From: Candidatus Woesearchaeota archaeon
Lineage (GTDB): Archaea; Nanobdellota; Nanobdellia; Woesearchaeales; ARS49
DNA: 64,000 bases
Direction: 5' to 3'
Assembly (NCBI GenBank): GCA_030750765.1
Contig: JASMHM010000005.1
Span: forward strand, 14,256-78,255
Shown here: piece by piece, positions 42,501-61,970 of the stretch
Layout: each line of letters opens with the position of its first letter
Numbering within the stretch: position 1 is the stretch's first letter
Program-made: the position numbers and the translations under genes
Notes under the pieces: generated by a model
The model's input: the letters and a program-made list of their open reading frames with translations, nothing else
Told to the model about the DNA's origin: nothing
Databases searched by the model: none

Positions 42501-45500
42501 GGTGGAAAAGGACCTGGCGACTACTTCCTGAAGGAATGCAACCAATGCCCTGTACTGCCAGGAGGCAGACTGACCATACAATGTGGCAATGATTGCTGTG
42601 GACCTAACGAGCGCTGTATACGTGGAAGCTGTAAGGCTGCCTGCACCTATGCTGGCGGGGGTGTGGCTAACATCCTAAATATCGTGCATTACTCACAAGT
42701 AACCAACTACACCCAAGTCTTCCAAAACGTGATCAACGTCACCCAGGTAACTGAGATCGTCCAGGTAGAAAACATCACCCAGTTCTACAACGTCACCCAA
42801 GGATGTCAAGAGATACCCGTACACGTGCTGGAGATGCCTGGAAGAATACCTGCCCAGGGAGTCACGGTAGAGGCCATCAACTATGATGATTTGGCAGCGA
42901 ACGTTCGCAACGTAGCAGACACTGGAAAGACTGACGAGCTCGGAAGAACCAAACTCTTCCCTTGCGAGAGCAGTCGCTTCATCATCGAAACCCAACCACG
43001 CATCTTCACCAAGAGTTTCGGCTTTGCGAGCACAAACAAGATAAAACAGCTGACTCTATTCGTCACGAGACCTCTCGAAGGAACAACTACTGAGACAAGC
43101 AAGTTAACCGTCCACGTGAGTGCTGACTTCAGAGACGGAGTCAACAGATTCATCCAGCCATTCCCTGGCGTGGAAGTGACGCTCAAGAACAGCAACTTCC
43201 ATGAAGGGGTCAAGCTGACCGAGATAGCCGAAAAGATAACAGATGAAAATGGAAACGTAACCTTCCTCATAGGGGTAGGGCCGGGTTATCTGGAGATTGA
43301 CGGGGAAAAACTATTTACTACCCGTCTTGTCCAAGATCTGGATGAGGATCTGATCATAACGGCCTTGGCAACCAGAGATGTAGGAAAGAATCAGCGAGCA
43401 TCCACAAAGCGCATATCCATCAAGTCTCACGGCACCTTCTTGGAATCTCGCTTTGCTCTCAACACCCCACCAAAAGGGGGCGAGGGAAGAGTGCAAGTTA
43501 CTAAGGAGCTAAAAGATCCTACAGTGGATGAGTTGGTCATCACCATCCAGGGCCCTGACCGAAAAGTGCTTCCAGGAGCAATCATCAAAATATTCAGCGG
43601 TGACGTTCTCGTCACGCAGCGAGTTATGAGCGATAGGCTACCCGTAGAGATTACCCTTCCAGAAGGTGATTACACTGTTGTAGCAGAAGCAGGAGATCAC
43701 AAGAGCGTGTCAAAGAACGCTTCGATCAAGAACCGTTTCGGCAAGCTACGAGGAGAACGAGTACTAATTCGGCTGACGGAGAGTACCATCCCCTCACTCA
43801 CGGCACGTATTATACACCCGCTCCAACCCTCCCCACTAGCCAAGTTCTTCACCTGGCTCTCTGGACCACCCACTGGTGCACTGACTGTGCTCAACTGCGA
43901 CGAGCCAAACCTCCCATGTGGAAGTGGATGTTGCAACTGGCACACCGAAGCGTGCAAAGCAGGATTGTGCGTCCCTAAGGTCGTGCAGGACAATCTAGCT
44001 TGGACAGACACACCACCGCCGCCCATCAAGCCAGACACTGACGAGTGTGTAGAAATCTACACCCACCAAGGTCCTATACCGATGCGAAACGGTGGCATAC
44101 TCATAAAAGCAGGCACGCATGGAAATAAGGCTTGCCAGTACAGAGCAAATCTTCCCTGCAACTGTGTCAGAAAAGGTGAAGGAGAGTGCAACATCAAATG
44201 CGACGCGCACATCGAAAGCACAACTATCACCGGAACATTGCCCAATAATTATCAGGAACGCGCTGGTTGGCGTCAGGAATACGTGGCCAGTTGTGGTTAT
44301 TGTGAGGACAAAACGCAAGTAAGTGGAGATACGCCAATCGATACCTGTCCTACGACCGAAAGCTTTGACAGCGCCCTAAACATGAATCTTGCATCCTGGG
44401 GTAAGGAAAAACCAAAGTATGGATTCCACGTTCGGAGCGAAGAGCAAGTCATTAAGATACAACGCTTTGGTGCTTCCGAGGACGCGAATGTGGTCCTGTA
44501 CCGGACGCTCCAAGAGCCTCTCGCAGACTTCCGACTCAAAGGAAGTGTGTACGCTGTCTTTGATGGAAAAAGAATGACTGCTAGCATCGCAGTCGTGGAC
44601 CAAGCAGGAGCAGAACATGTGGTGGAACTTGGCAACTACGTTAGCTACCACGGAAGAACTCGCCACATAAATGGAGGAAGGCCGGGTGGAGCGTACGCTG
44701 AAAGAACCTGGCAAACCTTTGCCATAGAAAAAAGAGGAAGCAGCATCAAGGTATACTCGTATGTTGACGGCATCGAGACAATTGTCAAGGAATACGGTAG
44801 CAAAATCGGTGCGTTGAGCCGTATTGAACTTCGCACTTGGCAAGAGGGACTGGGCAGCGAGGCATGGTTCAAAGACTTCCATCTTTCAGGTATTTGTGGA
44901 CTGCCAGCAGAGGACGTACTCCCTGACATTGATGTTTGTGGCAGCCAAGGATCATGGGATGTGAACCAAGGACCCCAAAGCAAAGTCCAGGCGCAAGATG
45001 GTCGTATCCGTATTGAAACCGTGGGCGGAGAAGATTCCTCAACGCTCACCCATGAGATCACCAAACCACTCATTGACTTTGACATTAGCTGGAAATCCCA
45101 AGCAGACTTTGGTTCTTCCATCCCACGCCGTGGACGCAAAAGCATGTTAATTATAGAGGACGAGCAAGGTAGGAAATACAGCTATGGCCTCAACCAGTAC
45201 ACGCACATGCACGGTCGAACACCGAACAACAAACAGGCGATGGTGCATATATGCAATCCTTCGGACTGTAAAACCAACTTTAAAGACTATGACGGCAGTG
45301 TGGTACAGTACCGTTTGGTTAAAAAAGGAAGCACGCTAACGCTATACGCGAACGGAGAGTCTGTAAACACGCAAGGTGCACAATTCTTCAAGCTAAAGAA
45401 AATATCTTTCAACGCACACACCTGGGGCGGTTCGCCACCATTCACTACCTGGTTTGATGGCCTTTCCGTCAAGGGACTGTGTGAAAAACCACCAGAACCA

Positions 45501-47882: not shown

Positions 47883-48300
47883 CATCCTCGTTGTAGGCTT
47901 GGTGGCTCTCTGTGCTCTGTGCTTGATATTGGGAGATGCTATCATCACGGGAGATATTAGTCTTCCAGCAGTCCACGTTACTGAAACGGTGTGTACAGAG
48001 GTAGATGGTGAGGAAGTGTGTGTTGAGGAGAAACGCATGGAGGGTATGAACCTTCCTTGGATGGAAGAACCCGCAGTGTGGTGGGGTAGTATTCTTCTCG
48101 GACTGGTTGTTTTCCTTGCATGCTTGTACGCGGTGGTGCACCTGCGAAGGACGCTGGCAGAAATGCGCCGAAGGCGAAAGCAACTAAAGGAGTATATTAG
48201 ACAGGCACGACAAGAGAACACCACAGATGAGCGGCTCACGTATTATTTGAAGAGTATGCGATACTCTGATCGCGATATCAAGAACGCTTTGAAGCATTAA
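47866..48300 (+). CDS. small two-TM membrane protein with a cytoplasmic tail resembling the giant-2 tail
   Basis: A putative GTG start overlaps the giant-2 stop. TM helices ILVVGLVALCALCLILG and ILLGLVVFLACLYAVVHL. Tail LKEYIRQARQ...YYLKSMRYSDRDIKNAL parallels the giant-2 tail LVDYITQCKR...QYVILGGYDPKLVNRAL. Confidence 0.35.
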   Translation: MKHTTSILVVGLVALCALCLILGDAIITGDISLPAVHVTETVCTEVDGEEVCVEEKRMEGMNLPWMEEPAVWWGSILLGLVVFLACLYAVVHLRRTLAEMRRRRKQLKEYIRQARQENTTDERLTYYLKSMRYSDRDIKNALKH

Positions 48301-48550
48301 TTTCGTTTGGTCTCATCAAGCAATGTATCATCTTTGACTTGCACTTCCATTCCTTGAGGAATTCCTTGACCTTCTTTTCCTGTTTTGGCCTTACGAGTAG
48401 AACGGTCTTTGCAAGTTGTACTATGCCGCATTCTTTTATGATGCCTGGTTGGCCTCCTCTTCCTTTGAGAGCATAGAAGAATCTGACTTTATCTTTGTAC
48501 ACCAAGTGTTTGGTGTCATATGTAACAATAATCATAGGGGTGAGCTTCAT
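48278..48550 (-). CDS. small conserved basic protein, paralog A (family of three; function unknown)
   Basis: MKLTPMIIVTYDTKHLVYKDKVRFFYALKGRGGQPGIIKEC...FLKEWKC. The ATG overlaps the stop of paralog B. The DNA is clearly a tandem duplicate of paralog B. Confidence 0.5.
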   Translation of the reverse strand: MKLTPMIIVTYDTKHLVYKDKVRFFYALKGRGGQPGIIKECGIVQLAKTVLLVRPKQEKKVKEFLKEWKCKSKMIHCLMRPNEINASKRS

Positions 48551-48894
48551 TTCTTGCCACCTCCAAACTTCTTTTTCAATTCGCGAAGTCTCTCAGCGTG
48601 GGGGTGTTCTTCCTTTGGCGCCGTTCGTATGGAGTCCTGGCCGCATTCTTCTGGTCGCATCAGGCAACGGAGCATTTTGGAATTGCACTCCCATTCCTTG
48701 AGGAAGGCTTGAACTCTCTTTTCATGTTCTGGTGCCACGAGCAACACGGTTTTGGCAAGCTGTGTGATGTTACATTCTTTGATTATGCCTGGCTGGCCCC
48801 CTCTACCTTTAAGCGCGTAGAAGAATCTGACTTTGTCTTTGTACTCTAAGTGCTTGGTGTCGTAGGTGAAGATGTTCATGGGGGCGCGCTTCAT
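48547..48894 (-). CDS. small conserved basic protein, paralog B, with a C-terminal tail (RLRELKKKFGGGKK) matching the giant-3 C-terminus
   Basis: MKRAPMNIFTYDTKHLEYKDKVRFFYALKGRGGQPGIIKEC...FLKEWEC plus the tail. Its ATG overlaps the giant-3 stop. The 25-bp junction sequence cttcatttcttgccacctccaaact is identical at 48545-48569 and 48889-48913. Confidence 0.5.
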   Translation of the reverse strand: MKRAPMNIFTYDTKHLEYKDKVRFFYALKGRGGQPGIIKECNITQLAKTVLLVAPEHEKRVQAFLKEWECNSKMLRCLMRPEECGQDSIRTAPKEEHPHAERLRELKKKFGGGKK

Positions 48895-51800
48895 TTCTTG
48901 CCACCTCCAAACTTTTTCTTCAAGTCACGTAAGCGCTTGGCGTGCTTGTATTCGTGCTCTTCCTGCTTTGGTTTTTCTTTTGGTTTATGCTTGATCGTTG
49001 GCTTTGGTTTCACCATTCGCTGGTAGTTCGTACCAAAGCTTCCTCGCAGTTTTTCTAGACTCTCGTTGTGGGTTCTCTGTCTCTTCTCAACGGGCGTGGG
49101 TTCTAGCGTGGTGCTTGGTGCGGGACGGACGTAGCTTGTCTTGGTCTTGTAGTTGGTGTCAAAGCTCTTCTTCAGGTTGTCCAGCATGTGGCTCTTGTGC
49201 TCATACGGCTTGCGCACGACCTTTGGTGCGGGCACAATAGGTGTTGGTTCTGGTTTTTTGTACTGTAGCCGCTCCTCAACTCTTCCACGGAATTGTTCCT
49301 TGAGCTTGTCAAAGCCATATCGTGGTTTGTGGACTGGTGCGCGAGGCTTCTTCTGGACAGGGAGGGCATGTGGTTGCGCCTTGGGTGTCTTTTCTAAGTA
49401 TCTTGCATAACTTGTACCGAATTGTTTCTTGAGTTGGTGGAGTGGTGTGGGTACTTTTTCAGTCTCTTTTGGCTTGGTCCAAGCGCTTGGGTGGCGTTTT
49501 CCAAGCATCTCTTGTAGTCGTTTCCCGCTGGTCTTAGGTTGCTGTTGTGGGGTGGGTTGAGGTCTAATGACGAACGGTTTGTACTTGACTTTTGGCATGT
49601 CCCACTTTGGTGGTGGGCTAGGTATCTGGGTTCTGGAGGGTAGTCGTATAGGTTTGAGTTTTGGTAGGCTAACTTTCAGGAAGACATCTTGCAACCTTCT
49701 CAAGGCAGGCACCATTACTGGTTTTCGTCTATGAGGCTTCCAGTCTCGTAATGGGTGCGGCACTTTGATGTGCGGTAGGCGGAGGTGTCTGAAGAATTCA
49801 ACAAGGACAGAGACAACAATGAGTGCGAGCAGAACATAGGCAGGGATGAGGGCTTGGTATAGGTAGTGGTGGAGTCCTATGGTTGCGCCTAGGAGGAGTG
49901 CGATGGCTACTTTTCCTAGGCGGAAGATGCGTGGAAGTGCTTTGCCGTACTTGTGCTTCTTGACCTCTCCCCACAAGATGAGGGCGATCATGGCGATGAG
50001 GAAGCCATAAATAACGATGGGTAGCAAGTTCTTGGCTCTTCTTTCAACGATCAAACAGTCACTTGGGCAGTTTACCTTGTCCTCTCCGTTTCCACACACA
50101 CCGTTTCCACACTTACAGTTGAGTGGGTCTGCTACGGTGTCTTCGTCGATTTCCTGGCCAACAACTGCGTATGTGTAGCCAGGTTGGCAGTTGTTAATGT
50201 TGAGCCGGATGTACTGATTGTATCCTAGTGTAACTTTTCCTTCTACTTGTTGTGCTACTAATCTTGCGATGACTTTTCTTGGTACGGAGTGGTCGATGAG
50301 TTGTCCGTGGTCTAGTTCCATCTCAAAGTAGTCTTCGCACTTGTTCTCCACAGGTTGACCTCCGACATTCTGGGCGCTGCTCACACTCACCACTCCGTCA
50401 TTGGGTTCCTTGAAGAACTCTCCAATTTGGTCACTCTCAACGGTGAAGATTGCGGTTTCGATGGTGAAGGGTCGGTTGCCTGCTAGTACGACGTATTCTT
50501 TGCCAGGCATTCTTGGTAGTTGGACTCCTTGGCTTAGGCTAGACACTACTGTGGGGCTTGCCGCGAGGAAGGGCACGATGTTTTTCTTTGCTCCGATCTT
50601 CTTTTGTACTTTCTTGTAGATGTCGATGGCGGGGCTTCCATCGTTTGGTGTTCCTACGAGGATGAGTTTTCTGATTTTTTCTTCAAACTCTTTGTTGGTC
50701 ATGTCCTTGAGTACTTGCTGAGTGATGAGTCCTCCCATACTGTGAGCGACGATGTCTACAGTGTCGAACTCTCGTAATGTACCTTCGATGAGTAGTCTTG
50801 TTTGTCTGGATATTTCTTTGAATTCTAGAGTGCTTGGGTACGCGATACTGTACACTTGTTGTGGTTGTTTGGTTAGTCTGAATTCTTCTATCATGGGTAG
50901 CCAGGTTGCTGGGCTGCTCATGAATCCGTGGATGAGGATGAGTGCTTGTCTGCTGCCGCCATCATATTCCTTACTCATCGTTACGTCGTCACAGCTGTCG
51001 CACCTGATTCCGTAGAATCCTAGTACGCTTGTGGTGTTTGTTTCAAAGCTTCCTTTGACTGTGGTGCCGTCGTAGTTGGTGACGATGGACTGCATGTCTC
51101 CGTTTTGTTTTCGGAATGCGGGGAATTCGCCTTCGAGGACGTTGTTGGTGCGCGGGTTCTTGACGCTTATGGTTACGGTTTGTGGTTTGCCACTGTTTTG
51201 GATGATTTCGATGGGGTCTACGAGTAGTGCGATGTGTTTGTCTACTTGTGGTAGGCTGAGTGCGTGTGGTTTCATGTTGAATTGGAAGGGTGTGGTGACG
51301 TCTTTGAATTCGATGGTGTATCCTTCTACCTGGACGCGTGGATTTTCAGGGGTGATGGTGGCTTGTTTTGTGAGCACTCTCTTTCTATCAATTTCTAATC
51401 CTTCTTTGGAGTACTCGCTCAACACGAGTTCGGAGTAGCTCACGCCACCGCATTCGAACTCTGTTGGTTTTTCTACGCCGACGAATTCGCAGCCTTCGTT
51501 GTTGCACTTTAGCGTTGTTATGTTTTCGTAGTTCTCAGAGACGCTTAGCGTTAGTACGACGTTGTCTCCGGCGCAGTCCATGGCGAATGGGTCTGCTAGC
51601 ACGCTGAAGCCTGTAGGTACTGGAGGGGTGCTGGCTTTCTTGATTTTTACTTGGCTTCCTGCTTCTCCTTGTGCGCATGCTACTTCTTCTGCTTCGATGT
51701 CTTCTTGGCTGATGAAGAGTTTTCCGATGTTGCTTCGTCTTTGGGAGGTTGCGGTGCTCACGCCTGCTGCTTTTGCTGCCGGTGCTGCTGCTGGCGCGGG

Positions 51801-54800
51801 GGCAGGCGCGGGTGCTGCGGGTGCATCTGGTGCTTCCTCGGCTGCAGCGGCTTTCTTGGCAGCATTGCTAGATCTGGAGGGAATTATTTTTCCCGTACCT
51901 GGATTGGTCTCTTCCCCGTAGCTGGTAAAGCCGGTGACGTTGAAGATGTGTCTCTGGTTGGAGAAGCTCACCTCTGTGCACGCCGAGCTTGGGCAGGTCT
52001 CAAAGACGCCATCATCTTCAGGATCTCTCGTCGCTCGAGGGGACAAGAATAACGTGTTGAAGAAGGTGACTTGTGATTCTACATTTAGTCCGGATTCTTG
52101 ACTGCTGTTTGCTAGGGCGTAATCTTCAGCAAAGACTAAGAAGCTAGAAAGGTTGGTGATGTTGTTTGCTATTCTTCCGAATTCTATGCCGCTCGTGTTC
52201 AGCTGTCCAAGTTTGAACGTGCTGTCTTTCATGATGTTGCTGTGGTTGTCGTGATATCGGTTGAGGTAGACAAACTTTGCTCCGGCACTGGTTCCGTTGA
52301 AGGTTGCGTTTCTTACAAAGATGAATTCTGCTTGTACTTGGGTGGATCCATTCCTGCCGTTGTAGGTTGCTCCGTCCATGATGTAGGTGCTGTTGATGAT
52401 TATGTTTCCACCTGCACCCCTTACTGTTGTTCCTGGGAGCATGGTGGCGTTGCTGAGGTTGAGATTTGCATCTCTAGGACTCCACTCCCAGTTTTGTATG
52501 CCGTACAGATGGTTGTGGGCGATGTCGTATCTTCCCCCAGTTCCAATCTCTCCCCCATTTGTCCCGTTGACAAGTAGGTGACTATCATTGATCAGGCTGG
52601 TGTTGTACTTGATCATGATCCTTCCTCCACCTCCACCTTCTCCAGTTCCTCCGCGTCCTCGCGCAAGGAAGTATCCTTGTCCGTCGATGACGTCTGTAAC
52701 TATGTTGATGCTTCCTCCGCTTCCTCCGCCTCCGTCTTGGTCACCAAAGCCGTCTACAGACAGGTTTCCAGAGATGTTCATGAGCCCTGCCTCGATGAAC
52801 ACTAGCCCTCCGCCTAGCGAACCGTTAACCTCTGGAGCTGCACCTCCGCCTCCGCCCCCACTTCCTAGCTCTACGGGATTGAAGGCGCTGCCGTACGTTG
52901 ATCCGTACGATTCTGTGCTTATTTCGGGGTTCTCTGTGGGTAGCCATGTGGGTGCTCCGGTTCCTCCGTGACTGCCGCCGCTTCCGTTGCCTTCTGTTGC
53001 GCCGGTGGGTCCTGCGCCCGGTCCTGTCTCTGCTCCAAACCCTTTGGTGGTGATGGTGCTTCCGACGTCCATGGTCATGTTGGTGGTGCTGATGTTGAGC
53101 CTGGTGACGTTAGCGATCTGTGACATGTCCATGAGTATGTGTTGGGCGGTGATGCTTAGGTTGGAGAGATTTTGGCTTGGGTTTGGGATGATGCTTGCGT
53201 TGTACAAGATCAGGTTGGTGACGTTCAGCACGAGACTGCTGTTGCTTTTTGTTACTGCCTGGGTGACGTTGATGGTGGCGTAATTCCAAATGCTGAGATC
53301 GGTGAGCACCCATCTCCAGCCGCCTCGGATTTGGACGCTGCTGGCGTTCAACTCAAAGAAGGCGATGGTGCCTATCCCTCCTCCACTCTTTCCAGACACG
53401 TCCGCATTCTCGATGGATAGGGTGCTGAAATTGGTTCTTACTGTGATCATGCCTCCTGAGCTGTTGTCGCCTCCTTTTACGTCAAAATTTCCATTGCCTG
53501 TGAGATTGTTTACGATTACGTTGATGGTGCCTCCGCTTCCTCCTGCTCCGGATTCTGTTCCTTGATAATTTTCGCCCTTAGCGCTGACATTTCCGCTAAT
53601 ATTCACTTGGTTGCCGCGGATGAACACCACGCCTCCTCCTGCTCCTGCTCCTCCTTGGTCCATTTTATCCCCGCCTCCACTTCCTGGTTGGGTAGGGTTG
53701 AAGGGGCGGTCATAAGGACTGCCTCCTGGCATGGTCCCGCCAGCAGTTTCGACAAATTCAGCACCCTTGCCGCCGTGACCTGCCCCTGAGCCTCCTTCGG
53801 TGGCTGATGTTCCTGCTCCAGGTCCTTTCTCTGCGATAAATCCTGCTTTATCTGCGGAAATAAACGAGTTTGCCGTGAGCGTGAAGTTTGGGCTGGTGAT
53901 GTTCATTACGCTTGTTCTGTTGATGGTGGAGTCCATGATGAGGCTGGTGCCTGCGCTTAGTGTGAAGTTTCCGATGAAGCTATCGTTGGTGTTGCCTTCG
54001 ATGGTGCTGTTTATTAGGTGGAAGACGCTGGCTGAGATGTTTAAGGTGTCATTTGCTTTTGTGCGGGCGTTGCTAACGTTCAACAAGGTGTAGTTCCAGC
54101 TGGCTTGTTTGACCCATCGCCATCCTTGCCTGATGTTGAGGCTGTTGTCGTCCAGGTCGAACATGGCGGCAGTGCCATGTTCTGCGCCACCATCTCCCTG
54201 CACCTCAAGATTTGTGATGGGTATCTGGGTGAAATTGTACTGTACAAGGATCATGCCGCCGCTGCTAGCGTTGGCTCCTTTTGCTGTGAGGAATCCGCCG
54301 CCGGTGAGGTTGCCTACCAAAATATTAATGGAGCCGCCTGCCCCTCCTGTGTTCTTAGTACCTTCTGGTGGGGGGAGTACTCCATCAACGCTGATGTTGC
54401 CCGACAGGTTAGAAAAGGAAGAACGGATGAACACCACGCCCCCTCCTCGCCCGCCTAGGAAACTTGCACTTTCGCTGGCGCCTCCGCTTCCTGCCTCTTC
54501 AGGGTTTAGAGGATTGTCATAGGGTTGATTGGGAACGCTCTCTCCTGGCATGCCCTTTCCACCGTGGCCGGCCCCGCTGCCTGCTAAGGTCGCTCCTGCT
54601 ACACCAAAGGCAGGTCCAGAATCTGAGGCAAAGCCGGCACCATCAGAAAGAATGACGGACCCTGCCGTGAGGGTGAAATTAGGACTGGTGATGTTGAACC
54701 TGCTCGTTCTGTTGATGACTGAGTTCATGATGAGGCTGGTGCCTGCGCTTAGTGTGAAGTTGCCGATGAAGGACACGTTGTTTTTTGGTTCGATGATGCT

Positions 54801-57800
54801 GTCTACAAGGTGGAAGACGCTGGCTGAGATGTTTAAGGTGTCATTTGCTTTTGTGCGGGCGTTGCTAACGTTCAACAAGGTGTAGTTCCAGCTGGCTTGT
54901 TTGACCCATCGCCATCCTTGTCGGATGTTTAGGCTGTTGTCATCCTCGTCATACATTGCTGTCGTGCCTTGTTCTCCGCCAGAGCTGCCGCTGGTGTTGA
55001 GCTTCTCTATAGAGATGGTGGTGGTGTTGTAACCAACGAAAATCATGCCACCGCCGCTTCTGGCTCCAGTACCTGTCGCGTCGAACGTTCCATTACCTAC
55101 AAGTTCGTTTACGAGGATGTTGATGCTGCCTCCGCTTCCCCCTCCTGCTAAGCCACTTCCCGCAACGCCTTGGACGCTGATGTTGCCGGAGAGGTTAGCG
55201 AAGTTGGATCGTATAATGACCACGCCTCCACCGAAACCTCCACGAGGTCCGCCGACTCCCTCAGAACCGCCGCCGCTGCCATGCTCAACAGGGTTTGTGG
55301 GGTCGTCATACACTTGGCCCTCGGGCATGGGAGGATCTGCTTCGGGGGGGCCGCCTAGTCCTCCGTGTCCTGCCCCGGCGCCGTCTCCGCTTCCCGAAGC
55401 CATGCCTGCTCCTGGGCCTAGGTCGTTAGAAAACCCTGTGCCGTCTGCGATGATGATCGAGCCAATAGTGAAGGTGAAGTTAGGGCTGGTGATGTTGAGT
55501 CTGCTTGTTTTATTGATGACAGCATCTACCAAGAATGAGGTTCCTGCGCCAATCGTAATGTTGCCGATGATGCTTTCATTGTTCTTGGGCTCGATGCTTG
55601 CGTTTGTCAAGTGGAAGACGCTGGCGGTGATGTTGAGTGAGTCGTTCGCTAACGTGATAGCATTTGTGACGTTCAACAAAGTGAAGTTCCAGGCCGCGAG
55701 CTTGACCCATCGCCAGCTCTGTCTGATGTTGAGGCTGTTGCTGTCCATGTCAAACATGGCTGAGGTACCGGGATTGCTTCCGCTGGCTCCGTCAACAAAC
55801 ATATTCTCAATGCTTGATGTGGTGGTGTTGTAACTAAGAAGGATCATACCTCCCCCGCCTCCTGAAGATCCAATACCTCGTGACAGGTACTTTCCGTCTC
55901 CGTGTAGAGTGTTCGCGAGTACGTTGATGGTGCCTCCGCTTCCTCCTCCATGGGGGCCGTCGCTAGCCCCTCCGTCTGTGCTGATGTTGCCTGACATGTT
56001 CAGCATGTCGGCTCTGATAAAGACTGCTCCGCCTCCTCTCTGTCCGCCCTTGCCTCCTCCACTTCCTAACTCGATAGGATTCAAGGGATCATCGTACACT
56101 TCGCTGCGAGGCAAGGGAGGAGTATCTTCGGGTACGGCTCTGCCTGCTCCACCGTGTCCTCCTGGACCGCCAAAGCTTCCACCATCTTGTCCTCCTCCAG
56201 GTCCGTCTGAGGAGTCGAATCCAGAGGCGTCCAGAATGATGAAGGATCCGCTGTCAATGCTGACGTTTACCGAGGTCACGTTGAATCTTGTGAAGTTTCC
56301 GATGGTCGAGCTTAGTATGAACATTTCGGTGGTGTTCACGGTCAGGTTCTTGTCCAAATCCAGGCTTACGTTTCCGGCAAGAAGCAAAGTGCTGTTTTGC
56401 ATGCGGAAGAACGCTCCAGAGATGTTGATACTGACGTTATACGTGGCCACTACATTTGTCAGGTTCATGGAAAACGCGTATACTGGTGTCTCGTCAAACG
56501 TCCACGACTGTCGCATGTTGAACACGCCGGTGCCTAGGTCCACAAATGCTAGCGAGCCAGGGAAGGCATTTCCTCTGCTGCTCACAGAAGAGCGAGAGGG
56601 GTCAAGAGTGCTGCTGTTTGCCCTAACCATGATGCGTCCGCCGCCTCCAGAAGCATTTTCATTACTTGAGGCTCCTTCTGCCTCGAGACGTCCGTTTCCT
56701 ACGAGAGTGTCTACGAGGATGTTGATGCTGCCTCCGCTGCCTCCGCCAGCTGCATCATTATCAGTAAAGACTGTTCCCCCTGACACGGTTATGTTTCCGC
56801 TCATGTTGAGCCTGCTTCCTCTTATGAACACTGCGCCTCCTCCTCGGGCAGCTCCAGAGTTACCGTCATCGCCCCTTCCGCCCTGGCTTCCAGGGTTTAC
56901 AGGGTTGCGTGCGCTGTCATAGCTCAGACCTGCTAGTGTGGGAGGTGTTCCGGGAGAGTCTAACCCTTTGCCTCCGTGTCCTGCGCCAGAACCGTAGGGG
57001 TGACCTCCGTCGTCGTCCGCCCCTGCTCCTGGACCGTCGTAGGCAGTGTCGCTTGCGTTAATGACTGAGCTCTCATCAATGGTTGTGTTTGTACTGGTGA
57101 TGTTTACTATGAGAAGGCTTGTTAGTATGCTGTTTTTGATCTCCATGTTGGTCGCGTTCATGGTGAGGTTGGTCGTGGTGTTTTCTGGGGCACCCTCAAT
57201 GGATGCGTTTACCATGCTGAACATCCCAACGCTAAAGTTGAGTGTGGCGTTCATGGTGATGTTAACGCCAATAATGCGAATGCTGCCCATGTTTTGCAAG
57301 GCTGCAGAGGGGAATCTGAAATCCTCAATGAGATAGACTGTGTCGTCGTCCACGTCCAAAATGATTAGCGAACCTGGATCTGCGTCGGCCTCGCCTGGTG
57401 AAACGTCGTAATTGTCGCGGGTGAGACTGGAGTGGTTGTACTCAATGCGCATTCTTCCTCCGCCGCCTGCACCTCCGCCTCCGCCTCCGCCTCTGGCAGT
57501 GATGTTTCCTGTACCATTGATGTGGTTGGCGATGATGTGGATGGTGCCGCCTCCGCCTCCGCCGCCTATTCCTGAGCCAAAGCTCTGGATGCCTGAGATA
57601 CCGTCTGCACTTATCGTACCGTTAACGATGAGCACGTCTGCCTCGAGCTTGAGTATGCCTCCTCCTGCTCCTCCAATGCCGTCATCCGTAGTGCCTGCAT
57701 GCCCTCCTCCACTTCCTGCCTGGAATGGGTTGACAGGATCTCCATACGCTACTCCTCCGTCGGAGGGAGGGTCGTTGTTATTCGCTCCGCCTCCACCGCC

Positions 57801-60152
57801 GTGGCTTCCTCCAGGGCCATGCTTTTCATCATCGCTAGAGCGGTCCACTTGGCTGATGCCTTCAAGAACTTGGTAGCCGGTACCATTCAACAGGATGTCT
57901 CCTTCTACAGTGATGTTATCTGCCTTGATGAGTATGCTTTCGTTGCCTATGCTGGTGGCGTTGATGATCATGATGGCTCCTGCACTAATGTTGATGTTGC
58001 TACAGGTTTTGTTGCTCGTTACGTACTCAGTACCGGTGATGACCCAGTTGCCTGTTGAGTCTGGACAGCTCGCAAACTTGGTGACGTTAAACTCGATGTA
58101 GACGCTGTGGTTCTTGTTGTTGGAGGTGTCGTTAGCTAGTATTGTGAGGTTGTACTCTCCCGAGGTGTCTGTGGCTAGCGTAACAAACGTGTTGTTGAAC
58201 TCGGTGCCAGAACGATTGAACAATTGTATCAGTGTGTTGCTGCCGTTGGGGATGGTGATGTTGGCAAACACAGTGTCTGTTATGTTGTCATCTGTAACAT
58301 TAACATCGATGGTGGTGGTGTTGCCTCTGGCGAACTGTTTGGGCGTGATGTTGAGCTTGGTTACTGCGGGTACTTTGATGTCTGAAGGGAGGTTGATCTC
58401 GTACTGGATGATCAGCACAGGATAGTTGGTAATGTTGTCATCATTCTGCATCACGATCTCTGCCGTGGAGTTGGTCTCGTTATTTTCCGGTGTTCTTATG
58501 CCTAGCGTGAACACGTCGCTCCCTGTTAGCGCGCTCTCGATGTCGGCTGAGGCATTAAGGCCTAGTTGCTGGGTGGTCTTCCAGTAGCAGCCAGAAGACA
58601 TAAGACAGTTGTCCTTCTCTTCATGGCCTGCCACGTTACACCCGTCCGCGTGGTCCAAGCACACGGAGCCATTCCATTGACAGCCGGTGTTCGTACCGCA
58701 AGAGCCTTCATCTCCCTGCTCTGCACAATTATCTCGGAAGCCTCGGCACAGGGTTCTGCTGCTGGTGAAGTTGGTGTGGTCCTCAAAGTAGACGTTACTG
58801 GTGCCATTAGTGCCGTTGTAGAGGTCGTTGTTGCCTTGCGAGTTGTCGGTGTAGTCTGCCGCGGGCTTGGAGATTCCGGCAATCGTGATGTTGTCCTCGC
58901 CAGTGCTCTTTGTTGCTGTAAGCGTTAGATTAACCAATGTGATGTTGGCGTTGTCAGGAATTATGGTGGTGTTGAAGTCTAGGAAGATGCGATAGCCTGC
59001 ATGCTTGGTGTCGCCCCAAGAGCACGTAAATTGGGCAGAGCAATCTCCTTCGCCGGAGGTTATATTGCTGCACGGTTCAGCTGTGCCCTCGCAGCTGTCT
59101 CCGTCCCAGGTGCATCCTCGCTGGGTGTCGCAGGAAGGCTCATCTGCGATCTCGCCGCAGGTCATAACTTCACCTGAGCAACCTGGATGGGTTTTGTTTC
59201 CAAGGGAAGCGTTTGAGGATGTGGTATCTCGGGTGTGTGCTGTCACGTTCGTGCTGGTCTCGTTTCTAAGGGTGTGCCCGTCTAGCGTGAGATTGCCTCC
59301 GTCTAGGGAGATCGCGGTTATGGAGACCACTTGTATGAGGAGGTCTCCTTGTTGTTGGACTGGCGAGACAGAGAAGCCCACTGCCTCTCCTGCAGACCTG
59401 AACAAGGTGAAGTGGTCAACGGTAAAACTTACGTCTCCGCTGTCGTACTGGATGTTGGTACAGCTAGGGCTTGTCGTGTCATCACACGTTCCCCAAGTTG
59501 TTCCATCATCGCTGTATTCGATCTTGCTGCCGATGGCGCTGTTGATGGTGAGTGTTGCTGTTTTGTTGAGCTGGACACACTTGGCAGTGTCTAGTCCGAT
59601 AAGGTTATCCTCCACAACAAGACATTCGTGGATGTTGGTGTAGTTTTGCTTGCCACCAAAGTCGATCTTTCCAAGATCGCCGCTAACGCTGCCGTCTTCT
59701 TGTATTTGCATTCCTTTGGGTATGAGTAAGAAATTGTAGTTGAGGATTGCAGCATCATCCTCTTCGTCCGCTGCGTCCTCTAGCGTGGTTGTGTCTTCAA
59801 TAAGACTGGGAAGGTCGGTAAGGTCGGGTAGTGCTTCAACAACTGGCCCTTGGAACTCGTGACTAAGCACCTGTTGAGAGATATTGGAGCCCACGAGTAA
59901 GGATACTGTGAGCTCCACCTCTCTAACATCTGCGTGGTTTTTGGTTAGTGTTAGCAATTCTCCATCAACTTCTGTCGTCACATTCTCGTGTGTCTGGACG
60001 AGGAAAGAGTCAGCCGGGCCTAGTCGCTCCGTGAGGTTTAGCGTGGTTGTTGGTAGATCAAGACCGAATAGTCCGGTGATCGTGCCTCCCCAAAGAGCTA
60101 AACTAAGCCCAGCAATGACGATGAATACGGCGAGCAGCTTCCTTACTTCCAT
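48891..60152 (-). CDS. giant surface protein 3 (3753 aa): signal peptide, NxT/S-sequon-rich beta-solenoid-like region, Cys clusters, ~6 tandem ~265-aa Gly-rich modules, Ala/Pro linker, lipase-type alpha/beta-hydrolase domain, two TM segments, basic repeat cytoplasmic tail
   Basis: N-terminal signal MEVRKLLAVFIVIAGLSLALWGG. Repeated modules (...NISASVFHL...GGAGGSINILV...NSLNIRQGWRWVKQASWNYTLLNV...) at ~52100-57400. AAKKAAAAEEAPDAPAAPAPAPAP linker. Hydrolase core ~50600-50960 (ALILIHGF oxyanion region, nucleophile elbow AHSMGG, LVGTPNDGSP). TM helices at ~49824-49901 and ~49959-50066. Tail with repeated L(K/R)KxFGTxY units ending KRLRDLKKKFGGGKK. Stop is TGA. Confidence 0.7.
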   Translation of the reverse strand: MEVRKLLAVFIVIAGLSLALWGGTITGLFGLDLPTTTLNLTERLGPADSFLVQTHENVTTEVDGELLTLTKNHADVREVELTVSLLVGSNISQQVLSHEFQGPVVEALPDLTDLPSLIEDTTTLEDAADEEDDAAILNYNFLLIPKGMQIQEDGSVSGDLGKIDFGGKQNYTNIHECLVVEDNLIGLDTAKCVQLNKTATLTINSAIGSKIEYSDDGTTWGTCDDTTSPSCTNIQYDSGDVSFTVDHFTLFRSAGEAVGFSVSPVQQQGDLLIQVVSITAISLDGGNLTLDGHTLRNETSTNVTAHTRDTTSSNASLGNKTHPGCSGEVMTCGEIADEPSCDTQRGCTWDGDSCEGTAEPCSNITSGEGDCSAQFTCSWGDTKHAGYRIFLDFNTTIIPDNANITLVNLTLTATKSTGEDNITIAGISKPAADYTDNSQGNNDLYNGTNGTSNVYFEDHTNFTSSRTLCRGFRDNCAEQGDEGSCGTNTGCQWNGSVCLDHADGCNVAGHEEKDNCLMSSGCYWKTTQQLGLNASADIESALTGSDVFTLGIRTPENNETNSTAEIVMQNDDNITNYPVLIIQYEINLPSDIKVPAVTKLNITPKQFARGNTTTIDVNVTDDNITDTVFANITIPNGSNTLIQLFNRSGTEFNNTFVTLATDTSGEYNLTILANDTSNNKNHSVYIEFNVTKFASCPDSTGNWVITGTEYVTSNKTCSNINISAGAIMIINATSIGNESILIKADNITVEGDILLNGTGYQVLEGISQVDRSSDDEKHGPGGSHGGGGGANNNDPPSDGGVAYGDPVNPFQAGSGGGHAGTTDDGIGGAGGGILKLEADVLIVNGTISADGISGIQSFGSGIGGGGGGGTIHIIANHINGTGNITARGGGGGGGAGGGGRMRIEYNHSSLTRDNYDVSPGEADADPGSLIILDVDDDTVYLIEDFRFPSAALQNMGSIRIIGVNITMNATLNFSVGMFSMVNASIEGAPENTTTNLTMNATNMEIKNSILTSLLIVNITSTNTTIDESSVINASDTAYDGPGAGADDDGGHPYGSGAGHGGKGLDSPGTPPTLAGLSYDSARNPVNPGSQGGRGDDGNSGAARGGGAVFIRGSRLNMSGNITVSGGTVFTDNDAAGGGSGGSINILVDTLVGNGRLEAEGASSNENASGGGGRIMVRANSSTLDPSRSSVSSRGNAFPGSLAFVDLGTGVFNMRQSWTFDETPVYAFSMNLTNVVATYNVSINISGAFFRMQNSTLLLAGNVSLDLDKNLTVNTTEMFILSSTIGNFTRFNVTSVNVSIDSGSFIILDASGFDSSDGPGGGQDGGSFGGPGGHGGAGRAVPEDTPPLPRSEVYDDPLNPIELGSGGGKGGQRGGGAVFIRADMLNMSGNISTDGGASDGPHGGGSGGTINVLANTLHGDGKYLSRGIGSSGGGGGMILLSYNTTTSSIENMFVDGASGSNPGTSAMFDMDSNSLNIRQSWRWVKLAAWNFTLLNVTNAITLANDSLNITASVFHLTNASIEPKNNESIIGNITIGAGTSFLVDAVINKTSRLNITSPNFTFTIGSIIIADGTGFSNDLGPGAGMASGSGDGAGAGHGGLGGPPEADPPMPEGQVYDDPTNPVEHGSGGGSEGVGGPRGGFGGGVVIIRSNFANLSGNISVQGVAGSGLAGGGSGGSINILVNELVGNGTFDATGTGARSGGGMIFVGYNTTTISIEKLNTSGSSGGEQGTTAMYDEDDNSLNIRQGWRWVKQASWNYTLLNVSNARTKANDTLNISASVFHLVDSIIEPKNNVSFIGNFTLSAGTSLIMNSVINRTSRFNITSPNFTLTAGSVILSDGAGFASDSGPAFGVAGATLAGSGAGHGGKGMPGESVPNQPYDNPLNPEEAGSGGASESASFLGGRGGGVVFIRSSFSNLSGNISVDGVLPPPEGTKNTGGAGGSINILVGNLTGGGFLTAKGANASSGGMILVQYNFTQIPITNLEVQGDGGAEHGTAAMFDLDDNSLNIRQGWRWVKQASWNYTLLNVSNARTKANDTLNISASVFHLINSTIEGNTNDSFIGNFTLSAGTSLIMDSTINRTSVMNITSPNFTLTANSFISADKAGFIAEKGPGAGTSATEGGSGAGHGGKGAEFVETAGGTMPGGSPYDRPFNPTQPGSGGGDKMDQGGAGAGGGVVFIRGNQVNISGNVSAKGENYQGTESGAGGSGGTINVIVNNLTGNGNFDVKGGDNSSGGMITVRTNFSTLSIENADVSGKSGGGIGTIAFFELNASSVQIRGGWRWVLTDLSIWNYATINVTQAVTKSNSSLVLNVTNLILYNASIIPNPSQNLSNLSITAQHILMDMSQIANVTRLNISTTNMTMDVGSTITTKGFGAETGPGAGPTGATEGNGSGGSHGGTGAPTWLPTENPEISTESYGSTYGSAFNPVELGSGGGGGGAAPEVNGSLGGGLVFIEAGLMNISGNLSVDGFGDQDGGGGSGGSINIVTDVIDGQGYFLARGRGGTGEGGGGGRIMIKYNTSLINDSHLLVNGTNGGEIGTGGRYDIAHNHLYGIQNWEWSPRDANLNLSNATMLPGTTVRGAGGNIIINSTYIMDGATYNGRNGSTQVQAEFIFVRNATFNGTSAGAKFVYLNRYHDNHSNIMKDSTFKLGQLNTSGIEFGRIANNITNLSSFLVFAEDYALANSSQESGLNVESQVTFFNTLFLSPRATRDPEDDGVFETCPSSACTEVSFSNQRHIFNVTGFTSYGEETNPGTGKIIPSRSSNAAKKAAAAEEAPDAPAAPAPAPAPAAAPAAKAAGVSTATSQRRSNIGKLFISQEDIEAEEVACAQGEAGSQVKIKKASTPPVPTGFSVLADPFAMDCAGDNVVLTLSVSENYENITTLKCNNEGCEFVGVEKPTEFECGGVSYSELVLSEYSKEGLEIDRKRVLTKQATITPENPRVQVEGYTIEFKDVTTPFQFNMKPHALSLPQVDKHIALLVDPIEIIQNSGKPQTVTISVKNPRTNNVLEGEFPAFRKQNGDMQSIVTNYDGTTVKGSFETNTTSVLGFYGIRCDSCDDVTMSKEYDGGSRQALILIHGFMSSPATWLPMIEEFRLTKQPQQVYSIAYPSTLEFKEISRQTRLLIEGTLREFDTVDIVAHSMGGLITQQVLKDMTNKEFEEKIRKLILVGTPNDGSPAIDIYKKVQKKIGAKKNIVPFLAASPTVVSSLSQGVQLPRMPGKEYVVLAGNRPFTIETAIFTVESDQIGEFFKEPNDGVVSVSSAQNVGGQPVENKCEDYFEMELDHGQLIDHSVPRKVIARLVAQQVEGKVTLGYNQYIRLNINNCQPGYTYAVVGQEIDEDTVADPLNCKCGNGVCGNGEDKVNCPSDCLIVERRAKNLLPIVIYGFLIAMIALILWGEVKKHKYGKALPRIFRLGKVAIALLLGATIGLHHYLYQALIPAYVLLALIVVSVLVEFFRHLRLPHIKVPHPLRDWKPHRRKPVMVPALRRLQDVFLKVSLPKLKPIRLPSRTQIPSPPPKWDMPKVKYKPFVIRPQPTPQQQPKTSGKRLQEMLGKRHPSAWTKPKETEKVPTPLHQLKKQFGTSYARYLEKTPKAQPHALPVQKKPRAPVHKPRYGFDKLKEQFRGRVEERLQYKKPEPTPIVPAPKVVRKPYEHKSHMLDNLKKSFDTNYKTKTSYVRPAPSTTLEPTPVEKRQRTHNESLEKLRGSFGTNYQRMVKPKPTIKHKPKEKPKQEEHEYKHAKRLRDLKKKFGGGKK

Positions 60153-60394
60153 ACTGCCCTCCTATCGTAGGAACATTTCCATTCCTTGAGAAATGCGTCT
60201 ACGGTGTTAGCGTGTTGTTTGGGTACTAAGAAGGCGGTGCGACCTAACTGGTCTATTTTGCAGTCTTTGATGATGCCACTTTTCCCATCTCTTCCTTTGA
60301 TGGCGTAGTAAAATCTAACCTTGTCAGAGTATTTTAGATGGGTGGTAGAATAGGTAAAAAGTGCAAATTCAGTGTAACTACTACCAGCAACCAC
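60143..60394 (-). CDS. small conserved basic protein, paralog C (first gene of the giant-3 operon)
   Basis: ...FALFTYSTTHLKYSDKVRFYYAIKGRDGKSGIIKDC...FLKEWKC is homologous to paralogs A and B. Putative GTG start at 60394-60392, 26 nt downstream of the TATA. Overlaps the giant-3 start by 10 nt. Confidence 0.45.
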   Translation of the reverse strand: MVAGSSYTEFALFTYSTTHLKYSDKVRFYYAIKGRDGKSGIIKDCKIDQLGRTAFLVPKQHANTVDAFLKEWKCSYDRRAVWK

Positions 60395-60419
60395 GCTGTT
60401 AAATAATTTAACAGTTTGG

Positions 60420-60427
60420 TATATAAA
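60420..60427 (-). promoter_or_regulatory. TATA box (tttatata on the minus strand) for the paralog-C/giant-3/B/A operon
   Basis: Forward tatataaa. The GTG lies 26 nt downstream on the minus strand, the same architecture as giant 1 and the tRNAs. Confidence 0.5.
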
Positions 60428-60429
60428 GC

Positions 60430-60450
60430 TTTCGACGTTTCTCGTCGAAA
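60430..60450 (-). promoter_or_regulatory. perfect 8-bp inverted repeat hairpin (tttcgacg-tttct-cgtcgaaa) abutting the TATA box; terminator of the upstream gene and/or operator
   Basis: Seen directly. On the minus strand the hairpin is followed by gc and then the T-rich TATA. It lies 70 nt downstream of the Rpp21 stop. Confidence 0.4.
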
Positions 60451-60518
60451 ACCCTACAATCACTCGCGTGGGTCAAAACTATCAAAAAACTCGATTCTTT
60501 AAATTACTACCGTACCAC

Positions 60519-60764: not shown

Positions 60765-60833
60765 GACGGTGATAGAGATGTTTTGTATTTAAATGATACC
60801 CATCTTAATAAGCGGAACCACGCTTTCACTCTC

Positions 60834-61970
60834 ATGGGATGGCGTGATTGGTTCCGTCGAGAGACAGAAATTCCTGCTGCAGAACTAGAGGTGTGGCTCA
60901 AGGAAAAGGCTACAGAAAGACGCGAAGAGCAGCAAGAGGAAGCAAAAGCGTTCGCTAACAAACAAGAAGAGAGCCGAAAAAGTATTCTCACTGGACTAGA
61001 AGCCTTAGAAGCTGCAGAGTTGGGTAATGAAAAGATCCCTGTCAAGCACAAACATTTCATGGAAGGCAATCGTGCCACCTTTATGAAAGTGATCAATCAA
61101 GGCCTAGAGAACAATCGCTTGGATGATTTAGGAACAAAACTCCAAAGAAGCATGACCATACTGAACGAATTTTTCCAGAACGAAGTGATGGCGATCTTAG
61201 AATCTGTACGCAATTACGAAAACGCAAGGAAAGAACAGCTCGAACTCGAAGCAGAGAACGAATTTGAGGTTGTTCTCAATCGTTTGTCTGCGTACCAAAG
61301 AGGAAAGAAAGAAAAGTCGCATGTAGAAAACCAACAAGCGGTCCTTACCAAGGAAGTGGAAAGTTTACAACAACAATACGCTGACAGAGATGAGCGAGCG
61401 AGCAACCGATTGCTCCAACCTGACTTTCTTGGTGCCCAAGAAAACGCTGACAAGTTGGAAACGGCAAGCAAGCGCATGCGCGGTGAGATAGCAGACCTGT
61501 TCTCCCCTTTACGAGATGTACTAAAAAAATACGGTCACGCTCGCTTCCACCACAAGCAGTTGATGGACCAATACCTCGACGACGCGAGCGTTGCTCTGAG
61601 CACAGACATAGATCTAGAAGTGGTGGATGCTTTGGCATACGCAAAGAGCATGATAGCAAAGGAAGAGATCACGTTCAAGGATGATGGGAAAAAACAACGC
61701 GCACTGGATGCCATCGATTTTATTTCCAAAGAAGAGCTCACCGTGATGCTTCGCGAGTATGCTTTGTTGAGCAAGCAGGCAAAGGATGCAGATCGTTCGA
61801 GCAAAGAGCATGATGCCATCAAGATTTCAAAAAAACTGTCTGAAGAAGCGAAACAATTGCAAGCAAAACTGTCAGACAAAGAAAAAGCATTGCGCCGCGT
61901 GGAGGACATCAACGTGGAAATTGAGTATCCTCATGAATTGTTAGAAAAACTGAAAGTTAAAGTGGTTTGA
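60834..61970 (+). CDS. hypothetical coiled-coil protein
   Basis: Long K/E/Q-rich helical ORF. First in-frame ATG at 60834, ~40 nt downstream of TATA-like tatttaaa (60788-60793). Confidence 0.35.
   Translation: MGWRDWFRRETEIPAAELEVWLKEKATERREEQQEEAKAFANKQEESRKSILTGLEALEAAELGNEKIPVKHKHFMEGNRATFMKVINQGLENNRLDDLGTKLQRSMTILNEFFQNEVMAILESVRNYENARKEQLELEAENEFEVVLNRLSAYQRGKKEKSHVENQQAVLTKEVESLQQQYADRDERASNRLLQPDFLGAQENADKLETASKRMRGEIADLFSPLRDVLKKYGHARFHHKQLMDQYLDDASVALSTDIDLEVVDALAYAKSMIAKEEITFKDDGKKQRALDAIDFISKEELTVMLREYALLSKQAKDADRSSKEHDAIKISKKLSEEAKQLQAKLSDKEKALRRVEDINVEIEYPHELLEKLKVKVV

Follow-up and report, generated by a model that had tools for sequence, protein, structure and literature searches.

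Here we describe a lipase-like α/β-hydrolase domain near the C-terminus of a giant surface protein, encoded on the minus strand of a 64,000-nucleotide stretch of DNA (the window) from Candidatus Woesearchaeota archaeon. We are highly confident that this domain is an active surface esterase held in a conserved cassette. An earlier reading of the window, made without database searches (the sequence-only reading), had treated the domain as an add-on in an adhesin. Instead, the hydrolase is the core of a C-terminal cassette common to well over a hundred surface proteins that otherwise differ, and it is not an occasional insert. A single motif sighting becomes a defined, testable object: a cassette of about 580 residues, its triad invariant and its distance from the membrane fixed. 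Woesearchaeota and other DPANN archaea are abundant, mostly uncultured, and thought to live attached to other cells. They are believed to lack lipid synthesis of their own, and the cassette bears on how they interact with their partners.

The giant gene and its orthologue

The giant surface protein is encoded by a minus-strand open reading frame (ORF) at 48891–60152, one uninterrupted frame of 3753 amino acids plus a stop codon; all parts of this protein given below lie on the same strand. Translation of 50600–50960 yields GGSRQALILIHGF...DIVAHSMGGL...LILVGTPNDGSP, an exact match to the motifs quoted in the sequence-only reading. The key motifs begin at residues 3070 (ALILIHGF), 3136 (AHSMGG), 3163 (LILVGTPNDGSP), 3251 (NDGVV), and 3280 (LDHGQL). 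The lipase-like α/β-hydrolase domain itself was placed at residues ~3051–3310 (50223..51002) using Pfam, AlphaFold2, Foldseek, a family profile, and substitution rates.

An orthologue of 3760 amino acids is present in another metagenome-assembled genome (MAG) of Woesearchaeota ARS49 (locus L002), with 82% identity overall and 89% in the hydrolase. By the Nei-Gojobori method, the ratio of nonsynonymous to synonymous substitution rates (dN/dS) between the two genes is 0.135 over the whole gene. It is 0.144 in the ectodomain and 0.059 in the hydrolase, the lowest value of any part of the protein. Because an orthologue of this identity is retained with dN/dS values this low, both over the whole gene and in the hydrolase, the giant gene is genuine and under purifying selection.

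Family matches and relatives of the hydrolase

Searching Pfam with the isolated 300-residue region returned α/β-hydrolase families of the lipase type exclusively, with E-values from 4e-7 to 4e-4. The best was DUF7379 (PF24096; E=3.6e-7, 30.8 bits against a cut-off of 33), aligned over profile positions 70–119 of 191. PGAP1 (PF07819; positions 84–147 of 233) scored 27.0 bits with the isolated domain and 22.7 with the whole protein, against a cut-off of 24.3. For Lipase_2 (PF01674; positions 3–97 of 219) the corresponding scores were 21.1 and 15.8 against 20.3, and for DUF676 (PF05057, a putative serine esterase) they were 20.4 and 14.4 against 20.3. LCAT (PF02450) reached 22.7 bits against a cut-off of 21, and the alignment covers profile positions 121–168 of 392, which is the nucleophile region only. 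What the domain shares with these five families is the nucleophile elbow and the next strand; the alignments are partial (48–105 residues), with scores at or around the curated cut-offs.

The Lipase_2/PGAP1/LCAT signature named in the sequence-only reading thus holds insofar as Pfam reaches these families, marginally; assignment to LCAT or PGAP1 proper does not follow from the 48–64 residues aligned. The domain does not qualify as an LCAT member, given the partial match to the nucleophile region and the lack of any LCAT structure among the top 50 fold matches. Nor does it qualify for DUF7379, where its score is below the gathering cut-off. An NCBIfam scan of the hydrolase domain found nothing near any cut-off. 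Among known structures, the best single-sequence match in the PDB is the putative lipase 7X2P (E=0.003), and the LipA entries match at E=0.4–0.6 only. When 48 family members were searched, DUF676 was the commonest Pfam match (34 members, best E=3e-7), followed by DUF7379 (33), Abhydrolase_6 (32), and PGAP1 (23), with E<1e-3 applied for DUF7379 and PGAP1. Hydrolase_4/S33 (12 members, weakly), Lipase_2 (5), and LCAT (3) were rarer. The family appears to be a distinct branch without a dedicated model.

We also ran an exhaustive phmmer search with a 301-residue query against 1.84 billion cluster representatives. It recovered 753 proteins at E≤1e-3, of which 169 reached E≤1e-30; nearly all span the entire query at 29–41% identity. 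The full-length relatives, together with the Pfam α/β-hydrolase matches, indicate that the GxSxG match did not arise by chance. A word-indexed homologue search was too insensitive for this family, giving five matches with the single domain and one with an 8-sequence profile. The relatives carry public names such as "alpha/beta fold hydrolase," "LamG-like jellyroll fold domain-containing protein," and "parallel beta-helix repeat protein" (Woesearchaeota/Nanoarchaeota), which differ because their ectodomains differ.

A genome scan recovered seven loci, six of them in MAGs that bear the label Woesearchaeota, Nanoarchaeia, or unclassified archaeon and one on a contig labeled Methanosarcinales. Apart from this contig, every named relative is from Woesearchaeota or Nanoarchaeia. 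The contig (L005, CAYGVI010000002.1) was binned as "uncultured Methanosarcinales archaeon"; its cassette protein agrees in locus coordinates and in identity to the query with that of L004 (JBGPSD010000012.1), from a Nanoarchaeia MAG. Either a DPANN contig has been mis-binned, or the finding may hint at a physical association with a methanogen host.

Fold and predicted catalytic site

An AlphaFold2 model was built for residues 3040–3375 from a 48-sequence family alignment, such that model residue i corresponds to protein residue 3039+i. The hydrolase was predicted with a mean predicted local distance difference test (pLDDT) of 87.8 and a predicted template modeling score (pTM) of 0.87, and it has the canonical α/β-hydrolase order of strands and helices. 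Conservation was counted in an alignment of the query and 158 homologues, or 159 sequences.

The model and the alignment together identify a putative catalytic site. The predicted nucleophile, Ser3138 (codon AGT, 50739..50741), lies in the sequence Ala-His-Ser-Met-Gly-Gly. In the model, it is Ser99, placed between strand 92–98 and helix 100–111 as in a nucleophile elbow, and a Ser is found here in 157 of the 159 sequences. The candidate acid is Asp3252 (50397..50399) in the sequence Asn-Asp-Gly-Val, which as Asp213 of the model follows strand 180–186 and a hairpin, and the candidate base is His3282 (50307..50309), or His243, in the loop between strand 236–239 and the C-terminal helix. Both are present in all 159 sequences. 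A predicted oxyanion-hole motif of the GX type, His3075-Gly3076 with Phe3077 next (50925..50930), is at the end of model strand 30–35; the His is found in 143 sequences and replaced by Pro in 13, and the Gly is found in 155. A Gly-Thr-Pro-Asn-Asp-Gly-Ser motif (residues 3167–3173, 50634..50654), assigned from the alignment and from comparison with BlEst2, follows strand β6 (model strand 121–127), with the Pro kept in 156 sequences and the Gly in 153. It is followed by a helical cap or lid at residues ~3174–3208 (model helices 135–169). The lower pLDDT of these helices, ~63–65, suggests that they are mobile.

In the model, Ser3138, Asp3252, and His3282 conform to the nucleophile-acid-histidine order, in loops after β5, β7, and β8. 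The sequence-only reading had proposed to locate the triad by profile search and structure prediction, and the predicted triad is complete, in canonical order and at canonical positions in the secondary structure. The acid and the base are downstream in the protein and fall outside the interval 50600–50960 that it had marked. Neither an incomplete triad nor a better match to a non-catalytic fold, either of which it would have taken as refutation, was encountered. The modeled elbow and triad order place the domain in the α/β-hydrolase fold superfamily (Pfam clan CL0028). Residues ~3051–3310 would then form a serine carboxyl-ester hydrolase of the bacterial-lipase-like branch of this fold. Ser3138 would be the nucleophile, His3282 the base, and Asp3252 the acid, and the oxyanion hole would be provided by the backbone after His3075-Gly3076 and after the nucleophile.

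A Foldseek comparison of the model with the PDB gave 526 α/β-hydrolase matches at E≤1e-3. The top matches are all lipases or esterases (probability 1.00, E=2e-10 to 1e-7), with TM-scores of 0.44–0.53 normalized to the query and up to 0.67 normalized to the target. They include the lipases of Proteus mirabilis (6JD9/4GW3), Burkholderia cepacia (1YS1), and Pseudomonas aeruginosa (1EX9), Geobacillus lipases, a Streptomyces lipase (5H6B), and BlEst2 (6WPY/6WPX). Along with the Pfam families and the AlphaFold2 model, these matches bear out the claim that the domain is an α/β-hydrolase of the lipase type.

Comparison with known enzymes

Bacterial family I lipases in the Arpigny-Jaeger classification have a GX-type HG(F/L) oxyanion motif and a GTPxxGS motif with a helical cap. 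The domain has the same arrangement: HG followed by Phe, an AHSMGG elbow of the xHSxGG type, and GTPNDGS followed by the modeled helices 135–169 after β6. The family I lipases of Proteus mirabilis, Burkholderia cepacia, and Pseudomonas aeruginosa (LipA) share these features and are among the top Foldseek matches (E=2e-10 to 6e-8). For Pfam Lipase_2, to which Bacillus subtilis LipA corresponds, the isolated domain scores 21.1 bits against the cut-off of 20.3. The pentapeptide Ala-His-Ser-Met-Gly is that of the Bacillus I.4 lipases. However, identity to the family I lipases is 13–18% with TM-scores of ~0.45–0.5, and these enzymes are soluble and secreted, neither membrane-tethered nor archaeal.

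The best match of the family profile among solved structures is BlEst2 from Bacillus licheniformis (6WPX/6WPY; E=4e-11), which also ranks high among the fold matches, its TM-score reaching 0.67 when normalized to the target. Four motifs of the two proteins align: HG, x-H/Y-S-x-G-G, GTPxxGS, and NDG, of which the last two read GTPHHGS and NDGAV in BlEst2. BlEst2 is a secreted lipase/esterase, and both proteins join the hydrolase to β-sandwich accessory domains. In BlEst2, a PDB title cited in PMC10816834 describes these domains as inhibitory. The two proteins differ in that BlEst2 is a soluble bacterial enzyme of 487 amino acids with C-terminal β-sandwiches and ~17–18% identity to the domain, whereas the 3753-residue archaeal protein has N-terminal β-sandwiches, with a cysteine knot and transmembrane helices after the enzyme.

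The lipolytic autotransporter adhesins of Gram-negative bacteria, such as Moraxella McaP and Pseudomonas EstA, and the giant SPEARE proteins of Nanohaloarchaeota also join adhesion or a large ectodomain to a hydrolytic enzyme in one surface-anchored protein, in organisms that live in contact with other cells. The resemblance is one of concept, without known homology: the autotransporter esterases have a GDSL/SGNH fold, SPEARE has protease and nuclease domains, and the anchors (β-barrel) and the order of domains are different.

The hydrolase is part of a conserved C-terminal cassette

The relatives are large proteins, the longest with 7646 amino acids, and the region homologous to the hydrolase is close to their C-terminus. 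The cassette has a set order: two β-sandwich domains, the hydrolase, a CxCGNGxC cysteine knot, and one to four transmembrane helices. The first element, which we call the pre-domain, occupies residues 2796–3050 (51003..51767) of the giant protein, as delimited by phmmer and an AlphaFold2 model. With residues 2790–3045 (256 amino acids) as the query, phmmer found it in 114 of the 158 relatives, always immediately N-terminal of the hydrolase. When modeled alone, the pre-domain is all-β and forms two β-sandwiches (pLDDT 83.5, pTM 0.57). It has no Pfam match and no significant fold match in the PDB, the best being glycoside hydrolase accessory domains at E=0.03.

After the hydrolase come a linker (LGYNQY...) and the cysteine knot, C-x-C-G-N-G-x-C-G-x-G-E...N-C-P-x-D-C (residues 3311–3370, 50043..50222), identified by alignment and motif search. 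The knot is predicted with a pLDDT of 82–92 and little regular secondary structure, and this region has no Pfam match. The motif CxCG[NDS]GxC directly follows the hydrolase in 107 of the 158 relatives. Nine Cys residues are invariant in eight diverse members: Cys3051 and Cys3054 ahead of the hydrolase, Cys3272 inside it, Cys3322, and five in the knot (C-x-C-G-N-G-x-C...C-P-x-D-C). At least one hydrophobic transmembrane segment occurs shortly past the hydrolase in 149 of the 158 relatives. In these 149 proteins, which are ~35% identical, the first transmembrane segment starts a median of 93 residues past the catalytic His, with an interquartile range of 91–96 and a full range of 73–109.

With other parts of the giant protein as queries (the repeats of the ectodomain, the first 700 residues, and the tail in the cytoplasm), phmmer finds essentially the close orthologue only. 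Since the pre-domain, knot, and transmembrane spacing are shared while the ectodomain and tail are not, the conserved unit consists of the β-sandwiches, hydrolase, knot, and transmembrane helices. The N-terminal ectodomain is the interchangeable part, and the tails also vary. Complete-looking members, defined by a Met start, a hydrophobic N-terminus, and a transmembrane segment past the cassette, number 74 and range from 582 to 7646 amino acids (median 1591). Most family members in which the hydrolase is preceded by fewer than 130 residues are contig-end fragments or have mis-called starts. We looked in the family for stand-alone minimal proteins consisting of hydrolase and anchor, and the smallest complete-looking members (~580–850 amino acids) generally keep the pre-domain. 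The cassette was also sought in the two other giant ORFs of the window, of 1450 and 3789 amino acids, and it is absent from both. The cassette was not described in any paper found by a literature search on DUF7379, for which no publication turned up, and on DPANN or Woesearchaeota in combination with lipases and surface proteins. The enzyme fold is already known; the archaeal cassette architecture appears to be undescribed.

One member, P0128 (MEM2916224.1; Woesearchaeota, 5821 amino acids), carries the cassette near its N-terminus, with the hydrolase at 211–513 followed by the knot and four transmembrane segments. Some 5200 more residues come after the cassette, the last transmembrane segment is at ~5765, and the NCBI name of the protein is "SpoIIE family protein phosphatase." Either the architecture is permuted, or gene calling or assembly has produced a fusion.

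Ectodomain, membrane anchor, and tail

The N-terminus of the giant protein, MEVRKLLAVFIVIAGLSLALWGG (residues 1–23, 60084..60152), reads in translation as a signal peptide or signal-anchor, with a charged n-region and then a 15-residue hydrophobic core. The variable ectodomain follows at residues 30–2740 (51933..60065), as recognized from its sequons, internal repeats, and phmmer results. It is built from repeated units of ~330 amino acids, and internal repeats are also seen by phmmer (8 stretches in L002). Each unit consists of a β-helix-like part rich in N-x-S/T and a glycine-rich block, DGPGAG..GAGHGG..PYD.P.NP.E.GSGGG...GGG.VFIR..N.SGNIS..G...GGGSGG.INI. In the whole 3753-residue protein, no repeat or β-helix family was matched by Pfam at E<0.1. 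The ectodomain has 145 N-x-S/T sequons, where shuffled sequences lead to an expectation of 44.5, and the cassette and tail carry almost none. An Ala/Pro-rich low-complexity linker (residues 2741–2795, 51768..51932) connects it to the pre-domain.

Hydropathy and the positive-inside rule predict three transmembrane helices at residues ~3376–3395, 3415–3432, and 3434–3455 (49788..50027). The start of ALILIHGF at residue 3070 is ~306 residues ahead of the first of these (3376), in agreement with the ~310 given by the sequence-only reading, and the folded hydrolase ends ~65 residues short of it. The loop after the first helix and the tail after the third are rich in Lys and Arg. Because of the N-terminal signal or anchor, the sequons of the ectodomain, the Cys residues of the cassette as opposed to a Cys-free tail, and the Lys/Arg-rich loops, the best topology prediction is that the hydrolase is outside the cell and membrane-proximal, as previously proposed, with the 297-residue tail in the cytoplasm. 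The suggestion that the enzyme processes its own anchor finds no support, as the protein retains three transmembrane helices and is without a lipid-anchor signal.

The Lys/Pro-rich tail (residues 3457–3753, 48894..49784), delimited by composition and phmmer, is 25% Lys and Arg with zero Cys. It contains about five copies of a motif resembling L..LK..FGT.Y, namely LHQLKKQFGTSYARY, FDKLKEQFRGR, LDNLKKSFDTNY, LEKLRGSFGTNY, and LRDLKKKFGGGKK, which may serve as a cytoplasmic docking motif. The only relatives of the tail found by phmmer are in the close orthologue and one fragment (P0153). The tail has no Pfam match, and the long cytoplasmic tails of other members are likewise without Pfam domains.

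Proposed function and substrate

From the sequence and the model, we infer that the hydrolase is an active extracellular serine esterase. Less firmly, its substrates may be ester lipids or other hydrophobic esters, because lipases rank first in both sequence and fold comparisons and because the domain has the GX-type HG(F/L) motif and a predicted mobile helical cap after GTPxxGS. In the explanation that we favor, a competent, outward-facing serine carboxyl-ester hydrolase would be the core of a cassette that places the active site close to the membrane of the cell itself, at a fixed spacing of ~93 residues from the His to the first transmembrane helix. An interchangeable ectodomain would precede it, which in the giant protein would be a glycosylated β-helix array of ~2700 amino acids. 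The long ectodomain would bind a partner cell or particle, and ester lipids or hydrophobic esters would then be met in the narrow cleft. The enzyme would then target the membrane of a bacterium or debris containing ester lipids, and not the ether-lipid membrane of an archaeon. We give this explanation in full an even chance. Lipid hydrolysis in trans, taken by itself, falls on the doubtful side of even, and the biological target, including any attack on a partner's membrane, is speculative.

Several observations weigh against this explanation. Every Pfam match is marginal and partial, centered on the N-terminal half and the nucleophile elbow. The Foldseek TM-scores are moderate (0.44–0.53), and the choice of "lipase" over "esterase" rests on the ranking of matches, not on pocket analysis. 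No neighboring gene is conserved across distant cassette loci. The active site is tethered near the cell's own membrane, ~2700 residues from the distal ectodomain, which fits a role in cis at least equally. Finally, the membrane lipids of an archaeal partner would not be substrates, since archaeal membranes consist of ether lipids, which no serine esterase can cleave, and breaching a partner's membrane would need a bacterial or other partner with ester lipids. Such a bacterial partner is not far-fetched, since Woesearchaeota MAGs are reported to encode murein transglycosylases and pore-forming toxins, which were interpreted as indicating that these archaea prey on bacteria (PMC9723730; see also PMC12352652). 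If the enzyme does act on ester lipids, this would argue for bacterial over archaeal targets and provide a handle on host range.

A narrower form of the same explanation holds that the cassette is specific to DPANN archaea (Woesearchaeota/Nanoarchaeia) and acts as a tethered ecto-lipase or acyltransferase in the cleft. The giant ectodomains would set partner specificity, and the enzyme would open or harvest the ester-lipid membrane of the partner. We consider this quite improbable; if true, the cassette would be a conserved tool for the predatory or parasitic life on bacteria proposed for Woesearchaeota.

The enzyme could instead act in cis on the cell's own envelope, deacylating, trimming, or transacylating a membrane or surface-layer component, such as scavenged host lipids, by acyl transfer of the PGAP1 or LCAT kind. 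The near-constant spacing from the His to the first transmembrane segment (median 93, interquartile range 91–96) in 149 proteins that are only ~35% identical would suit such a role, although it could just reflect a compact folded linker. The cassette is also kept whatever the ectodomain. Both PGAP1 and LCAT are among the marginal Pfam matches, but those matches are limited to the nucleophile region, and we know of no ester-containing envelope component in these archaea, which counts against this role. The reliance of DPANN archaea on host lipids, documented for a nanohaloarchaeon (10.1101/2023.12.06.570485), is in its favor. Overall, we regard action in cis as fairly unlikely. If it does occur, it would point to an unrecognized ester-containing envelope chemistry in these archaea; whether the enzyme acts in cis or on a partner, the cassette is a marker for finding and classifying DPANN surface proteins.

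Non-lipid substrates are also to be considered, in which case the domain would be an esterase or peptidase for acetylated polysaccharides or glycoproteins, polyhydroxyalkanoate (PHA), cutin-like polyesters, or peptides, used in nutrient scavenging at the surface. Pointing this way are the weak Hydrolase_4/S33 matches in 12 of 48 members, weak matches to PHA depolymerase and other esterases, and the resemblance of the pre-domain to glycoside hydrolase accessory domains, though the fold matches of the pre-domain are not significant (best E=0.03). Woesearchaeota have been reported as degraders of varied polymers (PMC9723730). However, lipases are consistently the best matches in both sequence and fold, and the GX-type HG(F/L) oxyanion motif and GTPxxGS with its helical cap are the arrangement of family I lipases. 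A non-lipid substrate seems rather unlikely.

Many α/β-fold domains have lost catalysis, and the hydrolase might be only a structural spacer or binding module. However, the Ser, Asp, His, and oxyanion Gly are essentially the sole invariant polar positions among 159 sequences of ~35% identity, and the dN/dS of the hydrolase (0.059) is the lowest of the protein; with a triad this invariant, a scaffold that lacks catalysis is very unlikely. A lipase effector at the toxin tip of a polymorphic-toxin or contact-dependent-inhibition protein, with the small downstream ORFs described below as immunity proteins, would be in keeping with the use of lipase-type domains as toxins by bacteria, with an enzyme domain near the C-terminus of a giant filamentous surface protein, and with two small paralogous ORFs directly downstream with 4-nucleotide overlaps, but it is extremely improbable and largely refuted: conservation is the reverse of that in polymorphic toxins, the C-terminal enzyme cassette being kept and the N-terminal body variable; the transmembrane helices and cytoplasmic tail after the hydrolase keep it attached to the producer; and the small ORFs occur on both sides of the gene, have no signal or transmembrane segment, and are present in the locus of the close orthologue only, not in L003–L008.

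Flanking genes

The surroundings of the giant gene are ordinary archaeal chromosomal genes, including a split RpoA'/A'', a Hel308-type helicase, phosphoglycerate kinase (PGK), a prepilin peptidase, and ABC transporter components. Three small paralogous ORFs flank it on the same strand, one upstream (60143–60463, 106 amino acids) and two downstream with 4-nucleotide ATGA overlaps (48547–48894, 115 amino acids, and 48278–48550, 90 amino acids). Their conserved core is ..TYDTKHL.YKDKVRFFYALKGRGG.PGII...L.KTVLLV....V..FLKEW.C, and they match no Pfam or PHROG family and have no signal or transmembrane segment. The orthologous locus, L002, has one such ORF on each side (684–935 and 12151–12423). The 115-residue ORF ends in ...ERLRELKKKFGGGKK (48547–48600), nearly identical to the C-terminus of the giant protein, ...KRLRDLKKKFGGGKK (48894–48940, both minus strand). 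This near match suggests that a local duplication or recombination copied the 3' end of the giant gene.

Between the giant gene and PGK is a plus-strand ORF of 395 amino acids with a TTG start (60783–61970), the 3' end of which overlaps the PGK gene by 14 nucleotides. Its similarity to the P22 coat protein family is borderline, with E=2e-5 and a score of 24.0 bits that just reaches the cut-off; it has no PHROG match, and part of it is conserved in L002. It may be a gene of the capsid or encapsulin kind, or the ORF may be spurious. The two other giant ORFs of the window are adjacent to the giant gene, on the plus strand. The first (32085–36437, 1450 amino acids) matches Beta_helix/NosD. The second (36513–47882, 3789 amino acids) contains FG-GAP repeats, many cysteine-rich CG..C..GE.C repeats, and one C-terminal transmembrane helix, and it has a syntenic orthologue in L002.

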